From the NCBI GenBank assembly GCA_012690745.1, contig GCA_012690745.1_4086.5: a stretch of DNA of 21,210 bases, one strand, 5' to 3'. Positions within the stretch are counted from its first letter, which is position 1. The number at the start of each line of letters is the position of its first letter. A program made the translations under genes and the position numbers. The stretch is from a phage. The notes beneath the pieces are model-generated. The model was not told the DNA's origin. It searched no databases and saw only the letters and a program-made list of their open reading frames with translations. Shown here one piece after another: positions 728 through 20,833 of the stretch.

Positions 728-1693
728 GTGAAAAAGCTTGATTTAAATACAATTGCCGAAGAAGTTCTGGATGAATGTTTTGCTAATGAAGAAGTCAACA
801 CACTAGAAGCCTTAGATTTCGTTGAAGATAAAGATGAAAATGAAGGTAAAGTACAAAGCAGTTTCAAATATAATATTACACTTAAGCGACCACCAAATGT
901 TTCCAATGAAGATCTAATTCGTGATATTCAAGCTGGTATCAATGTAAAGAAAAACACTGAACTGTTAGTTCGTTACAATTATGGACTTATTATTGATGTA
1001 GCAAGTAAATGTACTTGTTATATCCCATTTGAAGATAAGATTTCATATGGTGTTGAGGGGTTCATGAGAGCACTAAAAACCTTTGATCTTAATAAGAATG
1101 TTAAGTTCATTACCTATGCTTCTTCTAGTATTTACATGACAGTTTATAACGAAAGTTCTGACGCTAACTATATGGTACACTTCCCACGTTATATGAGTGT
1201 TCATAAGATCAAAGTAAAAAGATTCTGCCAGGAATATATGCGTAAACATGGTGTTCGCCCAACTCCTGAAATAATCTCAGAGGGTACTGGGATTGAGATT
1301 CAGCATGTTAATAACTGTTTGTTATTTCAAAGCGAATACACTTCTCTGGATGCACCATTAGACGGTGTTACCGATGGTACACTAGGTGACATTATTCATT
1401 CACCTGCTTCTGATTTTAACCTCAATGTTGATAGTATTCGTGCACCTTTACGTTATGCTATCAATGAACTGACTAACGAATTGAGTACTAAAGAACGTGA
1501 GATTATCCATCGTGTTCATGGTCTAGGTGAATATGAACCTGAAACGCTTCGTGAGATTGCTGATAATGGTTTTGTTGATGATAATGGAAAATATGTTAAA
1601 TCCCGTTCATCAATACATCGAAAGTACAGTGAAGCTATGCAAAAGCTTAAGAAGCTAGTACTTGCAAAAGGGTACGAATACGAAGATTTCTAA
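728..1693 (+). CDS. sigma-70 family RNA polymerase sigma factor
   Basis: GTG start 7 nt after AGGAG (716..720). Acidic N-terminus; region 2 (LVRYNYGLIIDVASK … YGVEGFMRALKTFD … FITYASS); region 3 (FPRYMSVHKIKVKRFCQEYMRKHGVRPTPEIISE, cf. sigma70 IPVHMIETINKL…GREPTPEELAE); region 4 HTH (LSTKEREIIHRVHGL … TLREIADNG … RSSIHRKYSEAMQKLKK). Confidence 0.85.
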   Translation: MKKLDLNTIAEEVLDECFANEEVNTLEALDFVEDKDENEGKVQSSFKYNITLKRPPNVSNEDLIRDIQAGINVKKNTELLVRYNYGLIIDVASKCTCYIPFEDKISYGVEGFMRALKTFDLNKNVKFITYASSSIYMTVYNESSDANYMVHFPRYMSVHKIKVKRFCQEYMRKHGVRPTPEIISEGTGIEIQHVNNCLLFQSEYTSLDAPLDGVTDGTLGDIIHSPASDFNLNVDSIRAPLRYAINELTNELSTKEREIIHRVHGLGEYEPETLREIADNGFVDDNGKYVKSRSSIHRKYSEAMQKLKKLVLAKGYEYEDF

Positions 1694-6110: not shown

Positions 6111-6311
6111 ATGTTTACTTTATATCTCGCAGTAGTTCTCACCAATGGTGAAATCACTCGTACTATTGGTGAAGGTGTATATAAAACACCAGACCAGTGC
6201 TACTCTGCTACTCATTGGCCTCGCGATAGTGGGGATGAAACTCGCACTGAATTCAAATGCATGAAAGTAAAAGGTGATTTTGTTAACCTTAAGGTTATCG
6301 AGGCGAAATAA
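6111..6311 (+). CDS. hypothetical small protein with hydrophobic N-terminus
   Basis: Track ORF starts at TTG 6054; in-frame ATG 6111 with AAGG 8 nt upstream is preferred (MFTLYLAVVLT…). Confidence 0.5.
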   Translation: MFTLYLAVVLTNGEITRTIGEGVYKTPDQCYSATHWPRDSGDETRTEFKCMKVKGDFVNLKVIEAK

Positions 6312-6826
6312 TGGATATTAATGAGTTGTTGATCTTATTGTTTAATCGTGGAAATGATGTAAGACGTTCTGAATATCAAGACAAAATTCACATTGAAACT
6401 GATAAATGTTATGGTAAAACAACTCATGAGATTTTGAAGCCAAATGGCAAACGATATGCCGATGTATGTTTTCATGAACGAAGTGATGGTAGTGAAATAA
6501 TCAGTACTGAAATTGTGTTTTATGATAGATCCTCGGCAGGTTCGTATGAAATAGAACTTATATATTGTCCTGGTTCAGAAACACACAATAAACGTCAGAT
6601 ATTATATGATGTTTATTCACCTCCAGGTGTAGCTGAATATTTTGTTATTGATTACAGTACTGAAGAAAGTGTGTTTCAACAGAGCTTGATTCATAACTTC
6701 CAGTTGAATGATCCAAATGTACCAAAGTTGTTCAAACTACTCGATACTATCGATGTTGATTTTGAATTTGTTATGTGCATTAGAACTTCCTTGATCGATG
6801 AATTTATGGAACTACTTAATATATGA
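6311..6826 (+). CDS. hypothetical protein
   Basis: TAATG coupling; 171 aa. Confidence 0.65.
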   Translation: MDINELLILLFNRGNDVRRSEYQDKIHIETDKCYGKTTHEILKPNGKRYADVCFHERSDGSEIISTEIVFYDRSSAGSYEIELIYCPGSETHNKRQILYDVYSPPGVAEYFVIDYSTEESVFQQSLIHNFQLNDPNVPKLFKLLDTIDVDFEFVMCIRTSLIDEFMELLNI

Positions 6827-7044
6827 ATCGTTACTACATTGTGTATGAGCATGTATCTGAGTTTAATAATGTACGTGGTTATAAGAAAGAAGTACAGAAG
6901 ATTGATGTATTTGTTCGTGCATTAAGTCCAACACATGCACTATTTAAATTGTTTGATGAAGTAACTAAGTACAACACACCAAAAACACAACGCTATATTG
7001 AAACAGTACATAGTGTAATACTCACTGAATATGATGGAGAATGA
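6823..7044 (+). CDS. hypothetical protein
   Basis: ATGA coupling; 73 aa. Confidence 0.6.
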   Translation: MNRYYIVYEHVSEFNNVRGYKKEVQKIDVFVRALSPTHALFKLFDEVTKYNTPKTQRYIETVHSVILTEYDGE

Positions 7045-7047
7045 CAA

Positions 7048-7266
7048 ATGAATTTATATCTAGTTGAAGGGTCAGTACAAGTATCCAAGCAAGACGGAGA
7101 AGGGTATCGTTTTTCACATGTAGAATATTTTAAGTACGTAGTAAAGGCCGATGGTCAGTACGACGCAGAAATTCAGGTTGAAGAATCATTCCGTAAGAAG
7201 AATGATATTGGTAAATTTGAATACCAAGACTTACAATTCACTGTATGGCCTAGCATTAATGACTAA
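7048..7266 (+). CDS. hypothetical protein
   Basis: GGAGA 7 nt upstream of ATG; 72 aa. Confidence 0.6.
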   Translation: MNLYLVEGSVQVSKQDGEGYRFSHVEYFKYVVKADGQYDAEIQVEESFRKKNDIGKFEYQDLQFTVWPSIND

Positions 7267-7267
7267 G

Positions 7268-7474
7268 ATGTGGTGGTGTCATGGTGTCTACAATGTCTAT
7301 GAATATGGTAGATTCAAAATGAGCAGCACCTATGCCAGACGTGTTAATGCGAAAAACCAAGTTGATGCTGCTTGTGAGATTGTAGAGTGGTATGCAGAGT
7401 TCAATGCAATTGATTTTATGTACGAAATAGTTACAATAAATGTTGTACAAATCGATACATCTTTGATACAATAA
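7268..7474 (+). CDS. hypothetical protein (start uncertain)
   Basis: Track ORF 7151..7474 overlaps the previous gene; first ATG after the upstream stop is 7268 (MWWCHGVYNVYEY…); no clear SD, reinitiation assumed. Confidence 0.4.
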   Translation: MWWCHGVYNVYEYGRFKMSSTYARRVNAKNQVDAACEIVEWYAEFNAIDFMYEIVTINVVQIDTSLIQ

Positions 7475-7505
7475 CCACATCAAAAAATTGCATCTGAGGA
7501 TACTT

Positions 7506-8168
7506 ATGTTAGTTAATCTTAATTTCATCACTTCACCTGACTGGGCATTACGTGGGGTTTCTTTAAACTTCAAGGAAACTATGTTTGATTACATTGGTGA
7601 GTGTACATTGGTAAATGCAACTTTTGACCCAAATCATCCGTTCTGGGCTGAAATTCATGATCCAACTGTAAACAACAATACATCTGTTATGACTATTGTC
7701 CAGACTAAACATGCAGGTATCCTTGCAGGTTATCGACCTGGACATGCAATTGAACACTTCACTGATTACGATGTAGTGGATGAATACCCAATGATCCATG
7801 AAGATGGAAGTCTATACACATCTGAAGACTTCCGTGCTATCTTTAATAGTACTGATGATATTCTACCAAGTGGACGTCCACGTCCTGAGTCTTATCTTAT
7901 GCATCCATCTTATGGTGTAGCAGATACGCTTGAACAGATTATGAATAAGTACAAGAACCTAATTGAAGGTCCAGAAGAAATTGTCCTGTGCTATCACCCA
8001 GTACTTAAGTCTGAACAACCAAAGGATGGTGGATGGCGTTGGCATAAGAATGGTGAGTATATCGGTACTAAACGAAGTAAAGAACGTTTTGAGTACTTGT
8101 ATGATGAACCAGATGTTGATGTGGTTTTGTGTTATAATTTTATTAAGGTGAAAAAGAAATGTATCTAG
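7506..8168 (+). CDS. hypothetical protein
   Basis: Track start 7488 is TTG; ATG 7506 has GAGGA 6 nt upstream. 220 aa. Confidence 0.65.
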   Translation: MLVNLNFITSPDWALRGVSLNFKETMFDYIGECTLVNATFDPNHPFWAEIHDPTVNNNTSVMTIVQTKHAGILAGYRPGHAIEHFTDYDVVDEYPMIHEDGSLYTSEDFRAIFNSTDDILPSGRPRPESYLMHPSYGVADTLEQIMNKYKNLIEGPEEIVLCYHPVLKSEQPKDGGWRWHKNGEYIGTKRSKERFEYLYDEPDVDVVLCYNFIKVKKKCI

Positions 8169-8401
8169 TACTAAGTTTTGTTGTTGCACTATTGTTTATG
8201 TTCTATCCTACACTAGTGGCATTAGCCACTAGACGAACGATGGTAGATCTCACTACTGTATTCTTGCTAAACGTGGCATTAGTACTGGTGTCTATTATCA
8301 TTCCAGTGAGCTTTACAGTTATTGATATTATTTCGGTATTACTCTTCGTGTTAAGTTATCTTATGCTTATTGAAGAAACAAATGTTGACAAACGTTCGTA
8401 G
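8159..8401 (+). CDS. small integral membrane protein
   Basis: AAGGTG upstream of ATG; almost entirely hydrophobic (two predicted TM helices). Confidence 0.6.
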   Translation: MYLVLSFVVALLFMFYPTLVALATRRTMVDLTTVFLLNVALVLVSIIIPVSFTVIDIISVLLFVLSYLMLIEETNVDKRS

Positions 8402-8412
8402 TACTGTATAAT
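8385..8412 (+). promoter_or_regulatory. sigma70-type promoter TTGACA-16-TATAAT
   Basis: TTGACA 8385..8390, spacer ending gtactg, TATAAT 8407..8412; overlaps the 3' end of the preceding gene. Confidence 0.6.
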
Positions 8413-8458
8413 GGTTCCTGTAGTCTGAAACTTAACACTTAAACTTGAGGTAAAAAAT

Positions 8459-8785
8459 ATGCTATCAGTACTAATTTCAATTCCGTCTTTAATTCTGATT
8501 TGGCTTCTGGTTTACGAATGCTTCATTACTGATGATAATGATAAAAAAGAGTTCTCTGAGTTGTTTATGCTTGATTCACCGATTGTGCGTATTTTCTATG
8601 CAGTCGTTGTGGTTTCAGTAATTGTATGGGTTTTGAGTTTTATCTTCCCACTCGGTGCAGTAGTTAAAACTTTGGATTTAGTTGAGAACTTTGTTGCAAT
8701 TATGTGGCTAATCAAAGCACTATTTGCAGGAAATGTTAAAATTTGGATTGATATTATCAAATTCAAGTTCACGAATAAGATGTAA
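8459..8785 (+). CDS. small integral membrane protein
   Basis: GAGGT 7 nt upstream of ATG; multiple hydrophobic segments. Confidence 0.6.
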   Translation: MLSVLISIPSLILIWLLVYECFITDDNDKKEFSELFMLDSPIVRIFYAVVVVSVIVWVLSFIFPLGAVVKTLDLVENFVAIMWLIKALFAGNVKIWIDIIKFKFTNKM

Positions 8786-11860: not shown

Positions 11861-12433
11861 ATGAATCGTAAAGGTCGTTTTAAAGTATCAAAAAAGAACA
11901 AAAGTTCTAGGTTTAAACCTATTGTTTTAACAGTTAAATCTAACAAAGATTTAACTGCACTTAGTAAAAAGATAATTTCATCTAAGATTGAAGTATCATA
12001 CGTAAATTCATTAAAATATATGAATGTTAAACCACTGGACCAACTCATTTCACTTATATTTGAACGTAATGATTTTGAGATATCAGTAGATGATTATAGA
12101 GCCTATAATGCTGGTTTCATTAATGTTACTTGTAATAAAAAACTAACTGAGTTGGAAAATTTGTCATGTATAATAAATCTAGATAAAGGTGTTGTGAAGT
12201 ACCATTTTGTACATTTCACTAATATCAATAATGGAATGGGTGTACAATCCAGACCTATAGTGCCTACGTGTGATGTTACTAAATTAGCAAAGCTCAATGA
12301 TGAAGAATATTTTCAAGAAAGCATTGTAACTGAGCATTTAGATGATATAATAGCTACTTACAAAGAATGCATATGGGTGTTGAATGCTATAAAACCTAAA
12401 TTGTGTTTAATGAATATTGTTCGTGATTTATGA
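11861..12433 (+). CDS. hypothetical protein
   Basis: Track start 11837 overlaps upstream gene; ATG 11861 follows GAGGA. Lys-rich N-terminus; very AT-rich. Confidence 0.6.
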   Translation: MNRKGRFKVSKKNKSSRFKPIVLTVKSNKDLTALSKKIISSKIEVSYVNSLKYMNVKPLDQLISLIFERNDFEISVDDYRAYNAGFINVTCNKKLTELENLSCIINLDKGVVKYHFVHFTNINNGMGVQSRPIVPTCDVTKLAKLNDEEYFQESIVTEHLDDIIATYKECIWVLNAIKPKLCLMNIVRDL

Positions 12434-12446
12434 ATGGGGAATCGTA

Positions 12447-12890
12447 ATGAGTTGGGTAAATGTTAATAGTATTGAACTTAACGAACAAGATATTTTTGCA
12501 TTTGTAAATTTAACTAATAACACAGTACTAAAAGGGCGTTTGTTCAGTGCTAGTGATGGGTACAAATGGATCTCTTTGATGGATGATAGTGGTGTGATTT
12601 ATAATGTAATGCAATTACCCCAATGGGTATATAGTAACACTGCTGACGATGTTCTTACCGCAGTTATGCGTGAGTTTGAAAAACTCCCAGGTGGTGATAT
12701 CAAAAACAAAGTTTTTAATGCAGAACGTAAAAATTATACAGCACAGCAATTGGAATCCCTTGCCATTGCTGCTTATCAAGCTGCTATTAAGAAGCCAGAG
12801 TGCGTTATTCTTAAGTATGTACCAGACTTAAAACTTACGTTGGAAGACATGGATGCATTCATTTTTACATCTGAACTTGATCAGTACTAA
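12447..12890 (+). CDS. hypothetical protein
   Basis: Track start 12417 overlaps upstream gene; ATG 12447 has GGGGA 6 nt upstream. Confidence 0.6.
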   Translation: MSWVNVNSIELNEQDIFAFVNLTNNTVLKGRLFSASDGYKWISLMDDSGVIYNVMQLPQWVYSNTADDVLTAVMREFEKLPGGDIKNKVFNAERKNYTAQQLESLAIAAYQAAIKKPECVILKYVPDLKLTLEDMDAFIFTSELDQY

Positions 12891-12918
12891 TTTAACTTTG
12901 GGACAACCATTCTTATTA

Positions 12919-12927
12919 TGATATAAT
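12919..12927 (+). promoter_or_regulatory. extended -10 promoter (TGaTATAAT)
   Basis: tgaTATAAT at 12919..12927. Confidence 0.4.
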
Positions 12928-12961
12928 GTTTTATGTCATTCGATATAAATGACAACGGAAC

Positions 12962-12969
12962 TATAAATA
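12962..12969 (+). promoter_or_regulatory. T4-type late promoter box TATAAATA
   Basis: Exact TATAAATA 37 nt upstream of ATG 13006; one of only two exact copies in the window. Confidence 0.55.
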
Positions 12970-13005
12970 TTATAGTAAAATTTATCTCTTATAGGAGTTA
13001 TAAAA

Positions 13006-13389
13006 ATGGTTGATAAATGGAATAAGAAAGATCCATCACATGATGTTGATATTTCTGGTCTAGACAATGCACATAAGCACAAGTATCTAGATTCACTAGG
13101 TCTTCTAAAACCAGACCAAAGTCTTGCACATGATCGTCCATCCCGTGAAAAAGCATTTAGCCTAGAATCACTAGGTCATGAGCTTAATCGTGTGTTTGAG
13201 GATCACCCAATCTATGTACGTGATATTATCGAGAAACTTAAAGTAACTCCTAAAGAGCACTTTAAAGCAACTGTACACTCTGCATTCCGTGCATTACATG
13301 AATCTCTAAAGAAAACTCACAATCTTCGTAAAATTCATGATGAAATCGTGAATGCAATCGAAAGTGAAAAACATAAGTTCAAGAAGTAA
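13006..13389 (+). CDS. hypothetical protein, paralog of the N-terminal region of the 13635 product; candidate late (virion-associated) protein
   Basis: AGGAG 8 nt upstream. Shares KYLDSLGLLKPDQ and …IIEKLKVTPKEHFKATVHSAFRAL with 13635 (RYVNSLGLLNATQ; …IVKELQSVPKEELKVKAQAVLDAM). Confidence 0.7.
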   Translation: MVDKWNKKDPSHDVDISGLDNAHKHKYLDSLGLLKPDQSLAHDRPSREKAFSLESLGHELNRVFEDHPIYVRDIIEKLKVTPKEHFKATVHSAFRALHESLKKTHNLRKIHDEIVNAIESEKHKFKK

Positions 13390-13391
13390 TA

Positions 13392-13428
13392 AAAAGGGTT
13401 GACTAAGGTCAGCCCTTTGTTGTATCAT
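13392..13428 (+). promoter_or_regulatory. terminator hairpin fused to promoter (repeated module, copy B, variant loop)
   Basis: gggttgac-taag-gtcagccc (13396..13415) plus T-rich tail; TTGACT 13399..13404, 18-nt spacer, TATCAT 13423..13428. Confidence 0.6.
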
Positions 13429-13457
13429 AACTTCTCAATATAACTGAGGTATCATAT

Positions 13458-13571
13458 ATGCAAGGTTTAAAATTTGTAGTTGCTGCACTCATCGCCGCAG
13501 TACTGGTTGGTGGTGTATTCTATGTAGTGGATCAAAAAGTAAATCCACCTGCACAAGAACAATCTAAGTAA
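13458..13571 (+). CDS. candidate 37-aa single-TM peptide
   Basis: GAGG 7 nt upstream of ATG; MQGLKFVVAALIAAVLVGGVFYVV… ; sits alone between module copies B and C. Below the ORF-track size cutoff. Confidence 0.4.
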   Translation: MQGLKFVVAALIAAVLVGGVFYVVDQKVNPPAQEQSK

Positions 13572-13579
13572 CAAAATAA

Positions 13580-13617
13580 GGTTGACTTCGGTCAGCCTTT
13601 TCTTTATACTATAAATA
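13580..13617 (+). promoter_or_regulatory. terminator hairpin fused to promoter (copy C) overlapping a TATAAATA late box
   Basis: ggttgac-ttcg-gtcagcc (13580..13597) plus T-rich run; TTGACT 13583..13588; exact TATAAATA at 13610..13617. Confidence 0.65.
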
Positions 13618-13634
13618 TAGACATAGAGAAAAAA

Positions 13635-14912
13635 ATGAAATCTATGGAGAGAAATCAAATGCCAAGTAATTTTACTGATAAAAATGGTGGTAACATGGCT
13701 GGTCACTCTGATAAATGGAGTGAACGCAACCGCCGTCCAAATAGTTATCAAGCAGGTCAAGGTTCACGTGGATCACGTAACCAAGGAACTGGTCTAGCTG
13801 GTAAAGCAAACGCAGAAGCAGGTGAAGTTAAGAGTACTGAGAACATGACTGAGCTAGAAAAGCTACGTTATGTTAATTCATTGGGACTTCTTAATGCTAC
13901 ACAAAAACAACGCCTAGCTGATATGGAACGTGAAGAAAAAGAAAAATCTGCTCCTGCTAAAGAAGAACCAAAACAAGAAGCACCAAAGGCGGTTAACCCT
14001 GTCAAAGAACTGTCGGATAAGTTAGGTAAGATTTTTGCTAATAAACCACAACTTATCCAAGGTATTGTGAAAGAATTGCAATCTGTACCTAAAGAAGAAT
14101 TAAAAGTCAAAGCACAAGCTGTGCTTGATGCAATGAGTGGAAATACCAGTACTGAACCAACTGAAGTATTCAGTACTATAATGCGTGCACTTGAAGGTAC
14201 GCAACAAGGTGATGTGCCTGCACAAGAGGAAGTAAGTCTTGAAAGCGTACTTAAAACATTTGATAGTATTGGTAAAGAAGACCGTGCTAATGCTCAACAA
14301 GTTAAGAATGTACTAGCTAAGTTAGAAAACCGTCTGGAAGGTAAAGACGATAAGATTAAATTAGTATCTGATGCAGTTAACGATGCACTTAAATCTTATG
14401 TACAAGGTGAAAAGAGTCGTTTTGTAACTGCAATGGATGCTGCATTCAATACTATGAAAAAGTATGAAGCTGATCATGGTGAGAAGGTTACACGAGATGG
14501 TTATCTGATGCGTGATGATGAAGAAGGTGCAGTAGAACAGAACGATGTTCATTCAGACGAAGAAATTGATGACATGGAAGCTGAACTGTCACAAGACCGC
14601 CAAATGACTGAAAAATCCCATAACGAACTACAGAAATTAATGCAATGGGTTGCAGATGTTGGTGAAAAAGCTGGTGCTGATAAGAAGAGTATAAACCGAA
14701 ATCTTAGTTGGATTAAAGATAAAGTTGGTAACAACGCTCGTAAACTACAAAAAGCGTGGACTGATGTAGTGAATGGTGCTGTTGATATTGATGTTGAATC
14801 CGGTGAGGCATATGATTATGCATTGACTACACTTGATGACTCTTTCCGTGATTACGAAAATGGAAATGTAACTCCTTGGGAAAAGGACATCATGAGCAAA
14901 TACGGTAAATGA
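13635..14912 (+). CDS. hypothetical 425-aa protein with Gly/Ser/Arg-rich, probably disordered N-terminus; candidate late (virion-associated) protein
   Basis: Longest ORF in the window; preceded by a TATAAATA late box; N-terminal region paralogous to 13006; acidic, Lys/Glu-rich central part. Confidence 0.75.
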   Translation: MKSMERNQMPSNFTDKNGGNMAGHSDKWSERNRRPNSYQAGQGSRGSRNQGTGLAGKANAEAGEVKSTENMTELEKLRYVNSLGLLNATQKQRLADMEREEKEKSAPAKEEPKQEAPKAVNPVKELSDKLGKIFANKPQLIQGIVKELQSVPKEELKVKAQAVLDAMSGNTSTEPTEVFSTIMRALEGTQQGDVPAQEEVSLESVLKTFDSIGKEDRANAQQVKNVLAKLENRLEGKDDKIKLVSDAVNDALKSYVQGEKSRFVTAMDAAFNTMKKYEADHGEKVTRDGYLMRDDEEGAVEQNDVHSDEEIDDMEAELSQDRQMTEKSHNELQKLMQWVADVGEKAGADKKSINRNLSWIKDKVGNNARKLQKAWTDVVNGAVDIDVESGEAYDYALTTLDDSFRDYENGNVTPWEKDIMSKYGK

Positions 14913-14920
14913 TAAAACAA

Positions 14921-14954
14921 AAGGTTGACTTCGGTCAGCCTTTTTTTGTAAATA
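14921..14954 (+). promoter_or_regulatory. terminator hairpin fused to promoter (copy D)
   Basis: ggttgac-ttcg-gtcagcc (14923..14940) plus T7; TTGACT 14925..14930; weak -10 TAAATA 14949..14954. Confidence 0.65.
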
Positions 14955-14983: not shown

Positions 14984-15235
14984 ATGAAAAAATATATTAT
15001 ATTTGGAATTGTATTATTTTCCAGTACTGCTTATGGTGCAGATTATCATTGCTCCGTAGCAAGGCAGGATTTCAGAAATGGGGAGTTCTATACTACCTCA
15101 TACACAAAAGGAATAATACACGACACCGACAGAACTATTGGATTTAATGCGTTTGACAACAAAGATTCATATACTTCAGGTATACTATCTGAGCGTAAGA
15201 CTGATGTAATGGGAATAGAAAAAGAGTTCCGGTGA
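14984..15235 (+). CDS. putative secreted protein
   Basis: Track ORF 14909 reads through the hairpin; in-frame ATG 14984 has GAGGG 6 nt upstream; MKKYIIFGIVLFSSTAYGADY signal peptide. Confidence 0.6.
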   Translation: MKKYIIFGIVLFSSTAYGADYHCSVARQDFRNGEFYTTSYTKGIIHDTDRTIGFNAFDNKDSYTSGILSERKTDVMGIEKEFR

Positions 15236-16006: not shown

Positions 16007-16039
16007 GGGTTGACTTCGGTCAGCCTTTTTTGTTATGAT
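16007..16039 (+). promoter_or_regulatory. terminator hairpin fused to promoter (copy E)
   Basis: gggttgac-ttcg-gtcagcc (16007..16025) plus T6; TTGACT 16010..16015, 18-nt spacer, TATGAT 16034..16039. Confidence 0.7.
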
Positions 16040-16067
16040 GTTGGTATTAACTACAGAGGATAAAGTA

Positions 16068-16709
16068 ATGACTAAGCAAGACATATTCAAAACTTTAATT
16101 GACATTTTGCGTCCATCAAAAACTCGTTGTGCGATGGAGTTTGATATTCCTTATGCTGAACGCGTAATCTTTCCACAAGTTAAAGCTGCTGGACTTACTT
16201 TGCTTGGAATGGGGATGTACTCTGTAGTAGTTGAACATAAAAACTATCCTGGGCGTGCATTTAAAGTAACCACTTCACGCTGGGATGGTTTTCGTGCTTA
16301 TGCAAAGTACTGCATTGAAAACGCAGGAACCAAGTTTCTTCCAGTGATCTACAGTGCAAACGAACAAGGAAACTTTGGATGGTATGAGATGGACAAGTAC
16401 TATCCTATAATTAAACAAAAAAATAATTATGATGACTTTGTTAGTACTAAAATTGGAGATTTATATTCTTATGCACATGCTGGTCAGTACGCTACTTCAG
16501 TGAATGATATGCGTGGAAATTCTGAAGAGATTGCTATTGCGACGGTCGCTGCTAACATCATGAAAGAGTTTCACGGGCGTTTTGTACCAGACATTCATTC
16601 CAGTAATGTCATGATGGATAAAGATGGCAATGTATTCATTACTGATCCTCTTTCGTGTGATGTACGTAGAGAAATACCAGTTACTGAAGAAGATCCAGTT
16701 TTTTATTGA
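16068..16709 (+). CDS. protein-kinase-like (atypical kinase fold) protein
   Basis: Track start 16035 lies inside the -10 box; ATG 16068 has GAGGA 7 nt upstream. Gly-rich loop LLGMGMYSVVV, candidate beta3 Lys in RAFKV, catalytic-loop-like VPDIHSSNVMMD and DFG-like ITD in canonical order. Confidence 0.65.
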   Translation: MTKQDIFKTLIDILRPSKTRCAMEFDIPYAERVIFPQVKAAGLTLLGMGMYSVVVEHKNYPGRAFKVTTSRWDGFRAYAKYCIENAGTKFLPVIYSANEQGNFGWYEMDKYYPIIKQKNNYDDFVSTKIGDLYSYAHAGQYATSVNDMRGNSEEIAIATVAANIMKEFHGRFVPDIHSSNVMMDKDGNVFITDPLSCDVRREIPVTEEDPVFY

Positions 16710-17054: not shown

Positions 17055-17393
17055 ATGGAACAATATTTTGAATTAATAAACAAAGTATCATTTTATGTAG
17101 TATCTTTGGTTTGGGTGTATTATATGTTTTGCTACATTATTGCATTCTTCCGATACACTACTTTATATGAACGTATCTACTATGATGCCCCAATTTCATT
17201 CTTGATGTTTTGTGCATGTACGTGGGGAATATTAGAAGTACTGATATGTGGGTATAGTACTGATGAATTAAATCTGGTATCGGTCTTGACTGGGTTTTCA
17301 TTTGTTGTTATGATAGCTGCCGTTCCAGTATGGTTGTTCTTTGGACTAGTTCATCGCATTGATATATGGCGTTCTAATATCCCTGAAAAGTAA
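17055..17393 (+). CDS. small membrane protein, tandem paralog 1 of 3
   Basis: Three hydrophobic segments; shares FRYTTLYERIY and C-terminal R…NIPEK with the two following ORFs. Confidence 0.6.
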   Translation: MEQYFELINKVSFYVVSLVWVYYMFCYIIAFFRYTTLYERIYYDAPISFLMFCACTWGILEVLICGYSTDELNLVSVLTGFSFVVMIAAVPVWLFFGLVHRIDIWRSNIPEK

Positions 17394-17402
17394 GGATTGG
17401 TA

Positions 17403-17744
17403 ATGATTTATTACACTAACATGTTTGCCTATGCTGTTGCTTGCATTTACATTGTGTACTTCTTATTCGGTGGAGTACTGTGCTTCTTTAAGTACAAAAC
17501 GTTGTTCAACCGAATGTACCCAAATCATCCAATTGTAGTTGTACTTTTGATTCTTTCAGTTTCTCAAATAATCGTTGAAACTACAATGGGTATCAGTAGT
17601 GTACATTATAGTTTTGGTACTATAGTAATTATTACTATGCTTATTGCATACATTTTAGTACTTGGATATGGTATCTTTGGTAATATTGGTATGAAAATGT
17701 ATCATCGAATTAAAACATTACGTGATAATCTACCGGAGCGTTGA
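17403..17744 (+). CDS. small membrane protein, tandem paralog 2 of 3
   Basis: Track start 17397 is TTG; ATG 17403 has AAGGA 6 nt upstream. FKYKTLFNRMY and C-terminal LRDNLPER. Confidence 0.6.
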   Translation: MIYYTNMFAYAVACIYIVYFLFGGVLCFFKYKTLFNRMYPNHPIVVVLLILSVSQIIVETTMGISSVHYSFGTIVIITMLIAYILVLGYGIFGNIGMKMYHRIKTLRDNLPER

Positions 17745-20356: not shown

Positions 20357-20833
20357 ATGACACGCATTAACTTAGTACACGTTAAAGAACTTGCTGACCA
20401 ACATCTGATGGCTGAATATCGTGAACTCCCACGTGTATTTGGTGCTGTACAAAAACACGTTCAAGCACGTAAGCGTGTACGTGATTTCAAAATTAACAGT
20501 ACTTATCTGTTAGGTTCAGGTCATGTAACATTTTTCTACGACAAGTTACTGTACTTACAGAAGCGTCATATTGATATTGTCAACGAATGTCTGCGTCGTG
20601 GTATGAAGATTCAAAACACTGAAGTAAACGACATTAGCGGCTTCCCTGCTGAGTTTTGTAATGACTACGTACCAACGGAGTCAGAGATTAAAATGTCTCG
20701 TGACCGTTTGATTGAGAAGCTCCAGATGAAGCCTACGTGGTATAAGTTTACTGATGTTGAATGTCCACAGTACGTTAAAGATATGTTGAATGAAATTGAA
20801 GAACAAATCAAAGATGAAATGAATAACTATTAA
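20357..20833 (+). CDS. denV: pyrimidine-dimer DNA glycosylase / AP lyase (T4 endonuclease V homolog)
   Basis: [35 protein letters not shown]…RVRDFKI…[10 protein letters not shown]…PTWYK matches the T4 DenV sequence as I recall it, including N-terminal Thr2 and Glu23; GAGGA upstream. Confidence 0.9.

Follow-up and report, generated by a model that had tools for sequence, protein, structure and literature searches.

The internal proteins (IPs) of phage T4, typically present in hundreds of copies, are encoded by small genes outside the main structural clusters. These genes lie upstream of denV in the orientation of denV, an arrangement shared by the two genes described here, and ipII and ipIII adjoin denV (order ipIII, ipII, denV), so that the proximity to denV stated in a preliminary description of this locus is correct. 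The IPs enter the host together with the DNA, and IPI blocks a restriction system. The N-termini of the T4 proteins, as read from NC_000866, are of the MKTYQEFIAE/A type (slash, cleavage position). Their mature part is free of L/I-x-E, the motif of the T4-type prohead protease, and the sole such site ends the targeting peptide, a pattern that we liken to that of the present locus.

A second described system is the inner body of the jumbo phage phiKZ, whose proteins are abundant and cut at defined sites. A radiation-sensitive (bubblegram-positive) rod of 91 x 18 nm also lies inside the heads of phAPEC6 and 121Q. To our knowledge, jumbo phages of the 121Q/phAPEC6/RaK2 group have so far yielded no inner-body or ejected-cargo protein.

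The closest system is the RaK2-like virion structural protein family, represented by phAPEC6 gp037c and gp035c, 121Q gp199 and gp201, RaK2 ORF275, GAP32_032 and CBB_38. The two genes of the present locus, A and B, encode direct members of this family, with identical or near-identical sequences at the same genomic position. Their products are already known as virion proteins verified by mass spectrometry (MS) in a sequenced phage group, and hence are no new candidates.

Source phage and layout of the locus

The window, by which we mean the whole analysed stretch of 21,210 bases, comes from an Asteriusvirus jumbo phage of E. coli with a 350-kb genome, and is 99.7–99.8% identical at the nucleotide level to SP27, E9.1, JP4 and phAPEC6. 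The locus consists of two single-gene transcription units inside the early-gene region, each with a predicted gp55-type late box TATAAATA ahead of it and a predicted intrinsic terminator behind it (Table 1). Gene A equals phAPEC6 gp037c, 121Q gp199 and JP4_CDS0179, and gene B equals phAPEC6 gp035c and JP4_CDS0181, with 121Q gp201 as an allele. The small ORF between them was ruled out as a paralogue of either.

Table 1. Sequence features of the A/B locus (positions in the window)
Feature	Position	Strand	Description
Sigma-70-like promoter match before gene A	12898..12927	+	Extended -10, TTGGGA-N18-TATAAT, TG upstream; consensus match only
Predicted late promoter box for gene A	12962-12969	+	TATAAATA, T4-type; 36 nt before ATG at 13006
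Gene A	13006..13389	+	127 aa, 14.8 kDa, pI 9.05; short paralogue, phrog_16530
Predicted terminator hairpin after gene A	13393..13418	+	GGGTTGACTAAGGTCAGCCC plus U-rich tail, -17.3 kcal/mol
Small ORF between A and B	13458..13571	+	37 aa, one hydrophobic helix (MQGLKFVVAALIAAVLVGGVFYVVDQKVNPPAQEQSK); equals 121Q gp200
Predicted terminator hairpin after 37-aa ORF	13578..13599	+	AAGGTTGACTTCGGTCAGCCTT, -12.4 kcal/mol
Predicted late promoter box for gene B	13610-13617	+	TATAAATA, T4-type; 41 nt before ATG 13659 (17 nt before ATG 13635)
Gene B (start almost certain)	13659..14912	+	417 aa, 46.4 kDa, pI 5.06; long paralogue, phrog_20398
B residues 1-190	13659..14228	+	Family core shared with A; alignments, predicted structure
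B residues 191-417	14229..14912	+	Acidic all-helical C-terminal extension; predicted helical domains 194-273 and 305-414
Predicted terminator hairpin after gene B	14919..14944	+	AAAGGTTGACTTCGGTCAGCCTTT plus U7, -14.3 kcal/mol

Late promoter boxes

The exact box TATAAATA occurs exactly twice in the window, as the preliminary description had it, both times on the + strand and in an intergenic position upstream of a + strand ORF. The count itself is not above chance (2 found against 3.5 +/- 1.6 in shuffles). The 7-mer ATAAATA was found at the two boxes and nowhere else, against 12.3 +/- 3.4 matches expected and at least two matches in all of 100 shuffles, which indicates that the motif is avoided everywhere else in the window. 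Both boxes are conserved in 121Q and G17. The orthologues in RaK2 and 7t3 keep ATAAATA ~35–40 nt upstream, and those in GAP32 and CBB have ATAAATT.

The same box marks late genes elsewhere in these phages. Of the 15 ATAAATA matches in the structural module of phAPEC6 (40 kb), 13 immediately precede a start codon in the matching orientation; (T)ATAAATA stands 18–65 nt before the genes for the capsid protein, the scaffold, the protease, gp232, gp234, gp238, gp242, gp244 and gp245, and the late box also precedes baseplate genes. A phAPEC6 gene outside the window, gp237c, carries the annotation ‘Sigma factor for late transcription’ (annotation only). An ATAAATA late motif is also described for the relatives CBB and GAP32, and for CBB a gp55-like factor as well, while its authors found no gp33 or gp45 homologues (PMC5259590). 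The earlier view of A and B as late units is borne out by these comparisons. The exact box 36–41 nt upstream of both starts, placed as before bona fide late genes of phAPEC6, resembles T4-type gp55-dependent late promoters. A full-text literature search found no Asteriusvirus transcriptome.

Paralogy and predicted architecture of A and B

A and B are paralogous all-helical proteins of a family restricted to RaK2-like jumbo myoviruses. BLASTP aligned them with an E-value of 4e-8 (24% identity over 119 residues, including SLGLL and PKE.(F/L)K). Both gave significant matches to the RaK2-like family profiles PHROG 16530/20398, sharing phrog_16530 (A, E 3.6e-56; B, E 5.8e-38), with B matching phrog_20398 at E 6.1e-180; the conserved module noted at the outset is thus a real one. 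The whole of A is homologous to B residues ~17–190, less the Gly/Ser/Arg stretch of B, which is retained in two A-type proteins (P0084 and P0088). The family comprised 35 cluster representatives in total among 1.84 billion. Homologues numbered 71 and 13, and all named source contigs were RaK2-like phages.

The 425-aa length first given for B stands as the longest ORF reading, from the in-frame upstream ATG at 13635, but the true start is almost certainly ATG 13659, since all homologues, distant ones too, begin MP at that position. A GGAG lies 10 nt upstream of ATG 13659, and the equivalent start is annotated in phAPEC6, JP4 and 121Q.

The description of the B N-terminus as Gly/Ser/Arg-rich and probably disordered agrees with the AlphaFold model, in which pLDDT is <50 at residues 11–20 and 30–56. 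The first 65 residues contain 43% G+S+N+Q and have a pI of 9.4, and residues 1–60 form a conserved yet disordered, basic, Gly/Ser/Arg/Asn-rich segment in which G35, R40, N41, T44, G45 and G48 are invariant. This segment is followed by an EKLxY.NSLGLL helix pair (61–97), a variable Pro/Glu/Lys linker and a four-helix domain with the PKE motif (113–180). The predicted structure of A runs in parallel, with a disordered N-terminus, the SLGLL helix and then a four-helix domain (residues 53–126). Overall B is acidic (pI 5.06), a property that was counted against reading it as head cargo.

Pfam and NCBIfam scans of A and B gave no match past threshold (best E 0.025–0.06, far below the cut-offs), and the phAPEC6 label ‘chromosome segregation protein’/SMC, which goes back to a note that cites a hit at 0.039, is therefore unsupported. 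A PDB sequence profile search returned nothing below E 0.07. Fold searches gave family members only in BFVD (Foldseek) and generic helical bundles in the PDB, with no informative fold match. A targeting patch in common with gp231c, a virion protein adjacent to the portal (GNRGSR versus GSRGSR), was considered and dropped as not significant (1.5% probability).

Presence and abundance in virions

A and B are physically present in purified virions, as had been proposed from the promoter boxes and the shared module. Published ESI-MS/MS of phAPEC6 virions detected gp035c (B) with 8 peptides and 28.8% coverage and gp037c (A) with 5 peptides and 48% coverage (PMC7247149 Table 1), and in JP4 virions the same sequences gave 4 peptides and 29% for A and 2 peptides and 5% for B (PMC12648861 suppl. 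2); these were whole-virion analyses, in which head and tail are not separable. The 172-aa homologue CBB_38 was found in virions of phage CBB with 9 peptides and 56.6% coverage.

Both phAPEC6 and JP4 virion proteomes also include thymidylate synthase, a RecA-like protein, an ssDNA-binding protein and a PhoH-like protein, and the coverage of B in JP4 is low, as would be expected if A and B were abundant late non-structural or assembly proteins (e.g. scaffold-like helpers) that co-purify but serve no purpose in the mature virion. We consider this very improbable, given that phAPEC6, JP4 and CBB independently yielded family members, that the coverage of A in phAPEC6 and of CBB_38 is high, and that RefSeq labels the RaK2 and GAP32 homologues virion structural proteins.

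The copy number of A and B looks low, roughly at the level of the portal. Label-free abundances in JP4, a single uncalibrated data set that gives rough values, were 5.1e6 for A and 1.6e6 for B, compared with 1.9e6 for the portal (12 copies), 1.2e8 for the sheath and 6.6e8 for the capsid protein (1620 copies). In this one label-free set, A and B thus lie about 100–400 times below the capsid protein.

The idea of a diverged pair resembling the T4 internal proteins is not supported. Products of both groups are in the virion, but the copy number of A and B appears much lower in the single uncalibrated JP4 set. Alignment of the family profiles to T4 IPIII, IPII and IPI by hhalign gave probabilities of 0.10%, 0.14% and 0.21%, respectively, and hence no homology, and a targeting peptide of the MKTYQEFIAE type is absent (A begins MVDKWNKKD and B begins MPSNFTDKNGG). 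The conserved N-module of the A/B family spans ~190 residues, not 10–19. By sequence, A and B are no homologues of the T4 IPs, and their membership in that group is unsupported.

Avoidance of the prohead-protease motif

The cleavage rule L/I-x-E for the protease of this phage was inferred from one site in the capsid protein (MLTE/S at residue 43, fitting the reported change from 42.2 to 37 kDa) and from enrichment in the scaffold (24 L/I-x-E against 6.5 expected). B contains none of these motifs against 4.1 expected (P 0.003–0.016), and ten non-redundant long homologues contain 7 against 44.2 expected. None of the control motifs was depleted in observed versus expected counts (L/I-x-D, 65/46; L/I-x-K, 77/47; V-x-E, 21/19.5; L/I-E, 40/43.7). 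No depletion of L/I-x-E was found in the portal, capsid and tail proteins, and the 32 other ORFs of the window have 58 against 46.9 expected. By these counts the long form specifically avoids the predicted protease motif, which is new here. The short A and the family members of ~160–180 aa have 16 motifs against 14 expected and A has a conserved I-I-E (I-I-E76 and L-H-E99 are the candidate sites in A), so the protease argument is limited to the long forms.

A cleavage motif near the N-terminus, for which the preliminary description suggested looking in alignments, did not emerge. The first 60 residues of A and B contain no L/I-x-E (the first L/I/V-x-E falls at residue 63 in A and at residue 115 in B), and no conserved prohead-protease site was found in the family alignment. 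Some short homologues have I/L-x-E opposite the candidate NPVKE/LS, which is nearly invariant in B, but it was not called a site because it faces V-Q-A and I-S-T in GAP32, CBB and 7t3, with no conserved Glu.

Absence of the motif in the long paralogue, set against its enrichment in the scaffold, may serve as a cheap criterion, computable from sequence, for proteins that are unprotected inside the prohead, and could shortlist candidates among roughly 30 other function-unknown virion proteins of 121Q/phAPEC6/RaK2 phages.

Recombination in the C-terminal half of B

The family as a whole retains the N-terminal half of B; modules that are present or absent make up its C-terminal half. Residues 191–417 vary among otherwise near-identical phages by allele swaps and module insertions, and the B alleles include forms of 417, 495–517 and 606 aa. 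In comparisons with 121Q and G17, the neighboring genes have 92–100% protein identity and dS of 0–0.23, whereas the divergent parts of B have dS of 0.2–1.3 with dN/dS of about 0.1–0.2. These values rule out positive selection as the source of the divergence and indicate old alleles moved by recombination. Judged by substitution rates, the C-terminal half of B is an allele acquired by recombinational exchange, also new here.

Exposed decoration and fibre proteins likewise combine a conserved N-terminus with a C-terminus that varies and recombines. A and B might accordingly be structural proteins in an external or junctional position that remain on the particle, either anchors or components of capsid or tail ‘hair’ fibres or neck/portal accessories of about 12 copies, with the N-module binding the particle and the variable C-module exposed. 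In phAPEC6 the centre of every hexamer bears a capsid fibre and the tail bears several rings of hairs, all of them unassigned, and the abundance of B in JP4 is near that of the 12-copy portal. One fibre for each of 270 hexamers, however, would take hundreds of copies, many more than the measured abundance indicates, and the predicted fold of helical bundles and disordered linkers is not fibre-like. The short form of ~170 aa occurs throughout the RaK2-like clade, which also speaks against external placement, and proteins added after head maturation need no avoidance of L/I-x-E. On balance we regard an external location as somewhat unlikely.

Possible role in the head

The avoidance of the protease motif and the pairing of a conserved N-module with a swapped C-module are compatible with head-internal cargo. 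Our best reading, held tentatively and with less than even confidence, is that A and B are low-copy head proteins incorporated during the protease phase, with a conserved N-module, an exchangeable C-terminal cargo in B that is proof against the protease, and release together with the DNA. In such a scheme, tens of molecules per particle would enter the head during the activity of the prohead protease. The ~190 conserved residues at the N-terminus (basic disordered Gly/Ser/Arg motif, SLGLL helices and four-helix domain) would serve as the incorporation or anchoring module, and the helical domains at the C-terminus of B as exchangeable cargo, swapped between phage lineages by recombination. Since selection would have stripped it of all L/I-x-E sites, the long paralogue would escape cutting in the prohead. 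A and B would most likely pass into the cell along with the DNA, as other head-internal proteins do.

A and B might instead be building blocks of a phiKZ-like inner body, the rod seen in phAPEC6 and 121Q, with a part in spooling the DNA and none in the host. With the phiKZ proteins they share a paralogous virion family, a jumbo phage, a maturation protease and an inner rod; B resists the protease motif, the basic Gly/Ser/Arg N-terminus might contact DNA, and neither gene is part of the main structural module. Such a rod needs hundreds of subunits, however, whereas A and B are near portal level in JP4; B is acidic overall and, unlike the phiKZ proteins, lacks the expected cleavage sites and is apparently of low copy; and the authors of the phAPEC6 study saw no phAPEC6 protein resembling phiKZ inner-body proteins. 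We hold an inner-body role to be quite improbable.

An extension of the head-cargo reading, which we rate as unlikely, is that the long paralogue represents a new class of jumbo-phage head cargo, in which a packaging module of ~190 residues carries exchangeable helical effector domains, survives the prohead protease without L/I-x-E, is injected with the DNA and, ahead of all phage gene expression, targets the host (anti-defence or takeover). The protein would then be a functional analogue of the polymorphic T4 internal proteins, evolutionarily unrelated to them. If the swapped C-modules were indeed injected effectors, they would provide a defined system for pre-expression host manipulation by nucleus-less jumbo phages.

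Hairpin-promoter cassettes around the genes

The folding energies of the three hairpins of the locus lie between -12.4 and -17.3 kcal/mol (z between -4 and -6), and the G17 annotation places terminators at the positions of those after A (ARNold, same place) and B. The stem of the hairpin after gene A carries TTGACT, which together with TATCAT 18 nt downstream makes a sigma-70-like promoter match for the 37-aa ORF. In the hairpin after that ORF, TTGACT with TATACT 17 nt downstream makes another at 13582-13610, abutting the late box of gene B. The repeat GGTTGACTTCGGTCAGCC was found in 7 copies against 0 expected, 5 of which yield matches to TTGACT-N17/18-TATNNT. Hairpin-promoter repeats flank A, the 37-aa ORF and the recombinant gene B, in agreement with the definition of PeSLs, composite terminator/early-promoter cassettes of T4-like phages (PMC4122927). 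As in those cassettes, a repeated hairpin with a -35 hexamer is followed by a -10, but the -35 of this phage sits within the hairpin stem, which differs from PeSLs as described. As sigma-70-like matches lie just upstream of both A and B, their expression may not be exclusively late.

Virion presence and abundance of the gene A and gene B products

The products of gene A (short paralogue; gp037c of phage phAPEC6) and gene B (long paralogue; gp035c of phAPEC6) are present in virions. In the phAPEC6 virion, ESI-MS/MS identified gp037c (14.83 kDa) by 5 peptides with 48% coverage and gp035c (46.39 kDa) by 8 unique peptides with 28.8% coverage (PMC7247149 Table 1). LC-MS/MS of virions of JP4, which is 99.8% identical to the window, recovered A with identical sequence from 4 peptides (29% coverage) and B, as a near-identical protein of 417 aa, from 2 peptides (5%) (PMC12648861). 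In CBB virions, 9 peptides covering 56.6% of the sequence came from the 172-aa homologue CBB_38, and the homologues of 121Q, RaK2 and GAP32 are labeled as virion structural proteins in RefSeq. The preliminary description had proposed both products as candidate virion proteins, a view that their absence from virions would have contradicted; MS detected both, and the proposal was right and had already appeared in print. What was found amounts largely to rediscovering virion proteins that had been annotated before, and the remaining interest lies in a protease-avoidance signature and in the modular C-terminus of B. With moderate confidence, we infer that A and B are low-copy head-internal proteins sharing a conserved incorporation module, with an exchangeable C-terminal cargo in B.

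Label-free abundance in JP4, a rough measure, was 5.1e6 for A and 1.6e6 for B, as compared with 1.9e6 for the 12-copy portal, 1.2e8 for the sheath and 6.6e8 for the 1620-copy capsid protein, which points to copy numbers in the tens, not hundreds. An inner body of 91 x 18 nm is present in phAPEC6 and 121Q; given tens of copies, A and B are unlikely to be its major constituents, but they may play a minor role in it.

Comparison with T4 internal head proteins

The T4 internal protein genes do lie near denV, as had been stated: ipIII and ipII immediately precede it and point the same way, and this position is the sole resemblance of that kind to A and B. Profiles of the A/B family gave a 0.1–0.2% probability of homology to IPIII, IPII and IPI, and neither A nor B contained a counterpart of the T4 targeting peptide (MKTYQEFIAE↓A or MKTFKEF...ITE↓A). 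L/I-x-E was absent from the first 60 residues of both, a search for a protease motif near the N-terminus having been suggested as a check. By these comparisons A and B are not homologues of the T4 internal proteins, and the earlier designation as an internal-protein-like pair was not upheld, the copy number also being apparently in the tens.

Family and predicted structure

The proposed paralogy was confirmed (A versus B, E 4e-8), with both proteins matching phrog_16530. In a multiple alignment, A aligned with B residues ~17–190 and retained DKW, the ..K.KY..SLGLL helix and the four-helix PKE domain. Since A lacks the NRR..AGQGSRGSRNQGTG stretch that the A-type relatives P0084 and P0088 keep, it is a trimmed paralogue. 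Among 1.84 billion cluster representatives, a profile search returned 35 members only, mostly of 156–186 aa, and in tblastn the family was confined to RaK2-like jumbo phages of Escherichia, Klebsiella, Salmonella, Cronobacter, Pectobacterium, Erwinia, Serratia, Yersinia and Xanthomonas. The ancestral protein had roughly 170 aa, and B consists of this core with a C-terminal extension. An AlphaFold model of B based on 48 homologues was all-helical, with a disordered N-terminus (residues 1–60) as previously suggested, a helix pair at 61–97 and helical domains at 113–180, 194–273 and 305–414, the last with a pLDDT of about 90, and low-confidence linkers between domains.

Avoidance of the putative prohead protease motif in B

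In T4, cleavage occurs after L/I-x-E, the scaffold is degraded to peptides, and IPI, IPII and IPIII each contain a single [LI]xE, the known cleavage site. The Asteriusvirus prohead protease is annotated as T4 gp21-like. In the phAPEC6 structural-module stretch, the capsid protein (6123-7298) carries MLTE↓SATSG at residue 43, and its published mature mass of 37 kDa versus 42.2 kDa fits loss of the peptide ending in MLTE. The scaffold gp226c (7390-8505) contains 24 [LI]xE versus 6.5 expected, a richness by which it was likened to the T4 scaffold. This site and this enrichment suggest that the Asteriusvirus protease follows a T4-like cleavage rule.

B contained no [LI]xE versus 4.1 expected (P 0.003–0.016), and 10 mutually divergent long homologues contained 7 versus 44.2 expected. 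Control patterns in the long homologues gave observed/expected counts of 65/46 ([LI]xD), 77/47 ([LI]xK), 21/19.5 (VxE) and 40/43.7 ([LI]E), and 32 other window ORFs held 58 [LI]xE versus 46.9 expected. There was no depletion in the proteins of the capsid, portal and tail. An important caveat is that A and the ~170-aa forms were likewise not depleted (16 observed, 14 expected), A retaining a conserved I-I-E. The simplest reading is that a long flexible B would be exposed to active protease inside the prohead, where selection for surviving it would leave B without [LI]xE; A and the ~170-aa forms may be compact, or processed.

A basic Gly/Ser/Arg patch (GNRGSR) was also found in phAPEC6 gp231c (12218-14422 of the same stretch, adjoining the portal gene), a 734-aa virion protein; its likeness to GSRGSR of B was not significant (hhalign 1.5%).

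Allelic variability of B

The 2.3 kb around A and B was 99.7–99.8% identical to Escherichia phages SP27, vB_EcoM_E9.1, JP4, BAU.Micro_ELP-22 and phAPEC6 and ~91% identical to 121Q, PBECO4 and G17, all of them jumbo myoviruses of the genus Asteriusvirus, about 350 kb in size and in the RaK2-like group. Protein identity to 121Q and G17 was 92–100% (mostly 98–100%) for A and the neighbours and 64–86% for the C-terminal half of B, the N-terminal half of which was 83–94% identical to 121Q. B of 121Q and G17 carries an insertion of roughly 80–100 residues, and further modules are present or absent among family members. Synonymous divergence was 0.2–1.3 in B segments versus 0–0.23 (mostly 0.1 or less) in the neighbours. 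With a dN/dS of about 0.1–0.2 in the divergent segments, fast positive selection was rejected as their source, and these segments are old constrained alleles swapped by recombination.

Predicted late promoters, terminators and surroundings

As first described, the T4-type late box TATAAATA occurs twice in the window, once ahead of each gene, which is no excess over chance (3.5 in shuffles). Its core ATAAATA was found only inside these two boxes, versus 12.3 +/- 3.4 expected; avoidance over the rest of the 21 kb is expected of a sequence acting as a signal, and fits selection that removes spurious late promoters from a region of early genes. In phAPEC6, across 40 kb of its structural module, 13 of 15 ATAAATA cores sit 18–65 nt 5' of genes, with (T)ATAAATA so placed for the major capsid protein, scaffold, prohead protease, gp222c, gp229c, gp231c, gp232, endonuclease VII-like, gp238, gp242, baseplate wedge and gp245 genes; the annotation of this module includes the late sigma factor gp237c. 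ATAAATA ahead of structural genes and a gp55-like factor were reported in CBB, and the motif likewise in GAP32 (PMC5259590). The RaK2 and Salmonella phage 7t3 orthologues carry ATAAATA about 35–40 nt before the ATG, and those of GAP32 and CBB carry ATAAATT instead. Based on the placement in phAPEC6 and the retention in distant relatives, we accept both boxes as putative late promoters. Sigma-70-like matches ahead of A and B may allow some earlier transcription. A 7/8 near-copy of the late box, TATAAATG, is preserved in G17 and 121Q.

Features of the window around gene A and gene B
Feature	Position	Strand	Remark
Sigma-70-family protein	728-1693	+	Pfam regions 2, 3 and 4
Sigma-70-like match ahead of A	12898-12927	+	consensus match
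Near-copy of late box	12944-12951	+	18 nt 5' of exact gene A box
Late box of A	12962	+	36 nt 5' of ATG
Gene A	13006-13389	+	127 aa
37-aa ORF between A and B	13458-13571	+	one hydrophobic helix
Sigma-70-like match ahead of B	13582-13610	+	consensus match
Late box of B	13610	+	41 nt 5' of ATG
Gene B	13659-14912	+	417 aa
Gene after B	14909/14984-15235	+	small protein with signal peptide MKKYIIFGIVLFSSTAYG...
T7 gp0.7-like kinase (annotated)	16035-16709	+
Tandem neighbour 1	17055-17393	+
Tandem neighbour 2	17397-17744	+
denV	20357-20833	+
GGTTGACTTCGGTCAGCC copies	10155, 13397, 13580, 14923, 16008, 20297, 20841	+

A strong hairpin with a U-rich tail (-12.4 to -17.3 kcal/mol) follows A, the 37-aa ORF and B, and the G17 annotation has terminators at these three positions; the two paralogous genes are each bounded by a predicted late promoter and terminator. 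The start of B is most likely 13659, not 13635, because all homologues have MP at that point, GGAG lies 10 nt upstream and the resulting 46.4 kDa equals that of phAPEC6 gp035c, which disfavors the 425 aa given earlier. The 37-aa ORF is flanked on either side by a hairpin cassette of its own and shows 100% conservation across 121Q, phAPEC6 and G17.

The 18-nt hairpin GGTTGACTTCGGTCAGCC was found in 7 copies with 0–2 mismatches (0 expected by chance), identical copies lying on both sides of B. It is a terminator stem holding a -35 hexamer, then a -10; in 5 of the 7 copies, TTGACT and a -10-like hexamer 17–18 nt downstream make a sigma-70-like promoter match. PeSL cassettes, through which modules are shuffled in T4-like phages (PMC2839356, PMC4122927), likewise join a stem-loop terminator to a promoter, whereas in the window the -35 lies inside the stem. 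Salmonella phage 7t3 carries a near-identical hairpin.

The gene after B starts at 14909 (longer) in phAPEC6 and JP4 and at 14984 in 121Q; the latter is more plausible, as the former reading would run through the terminator hairpin. A small signal-peptide protein also immediately follows the A/B-family gene of GAP32, CBB and 7t3.

The genes flanking A and B are short and on the + strand throughout, with known function in few, and the surroundings are an early-type region rather than a structural module. The sigma-70-family ORF presumably encodes the phage-borne sigma factor that has been noted in phAPEC6 and CBB, separate from the gp55-like late factor. The two tandem neighbours look like distant paralogues: in tblastn against 121Q, phAPEC6 and G17, the product of the first matched the gene of the second with 25% identity and an E of about 7e-8.
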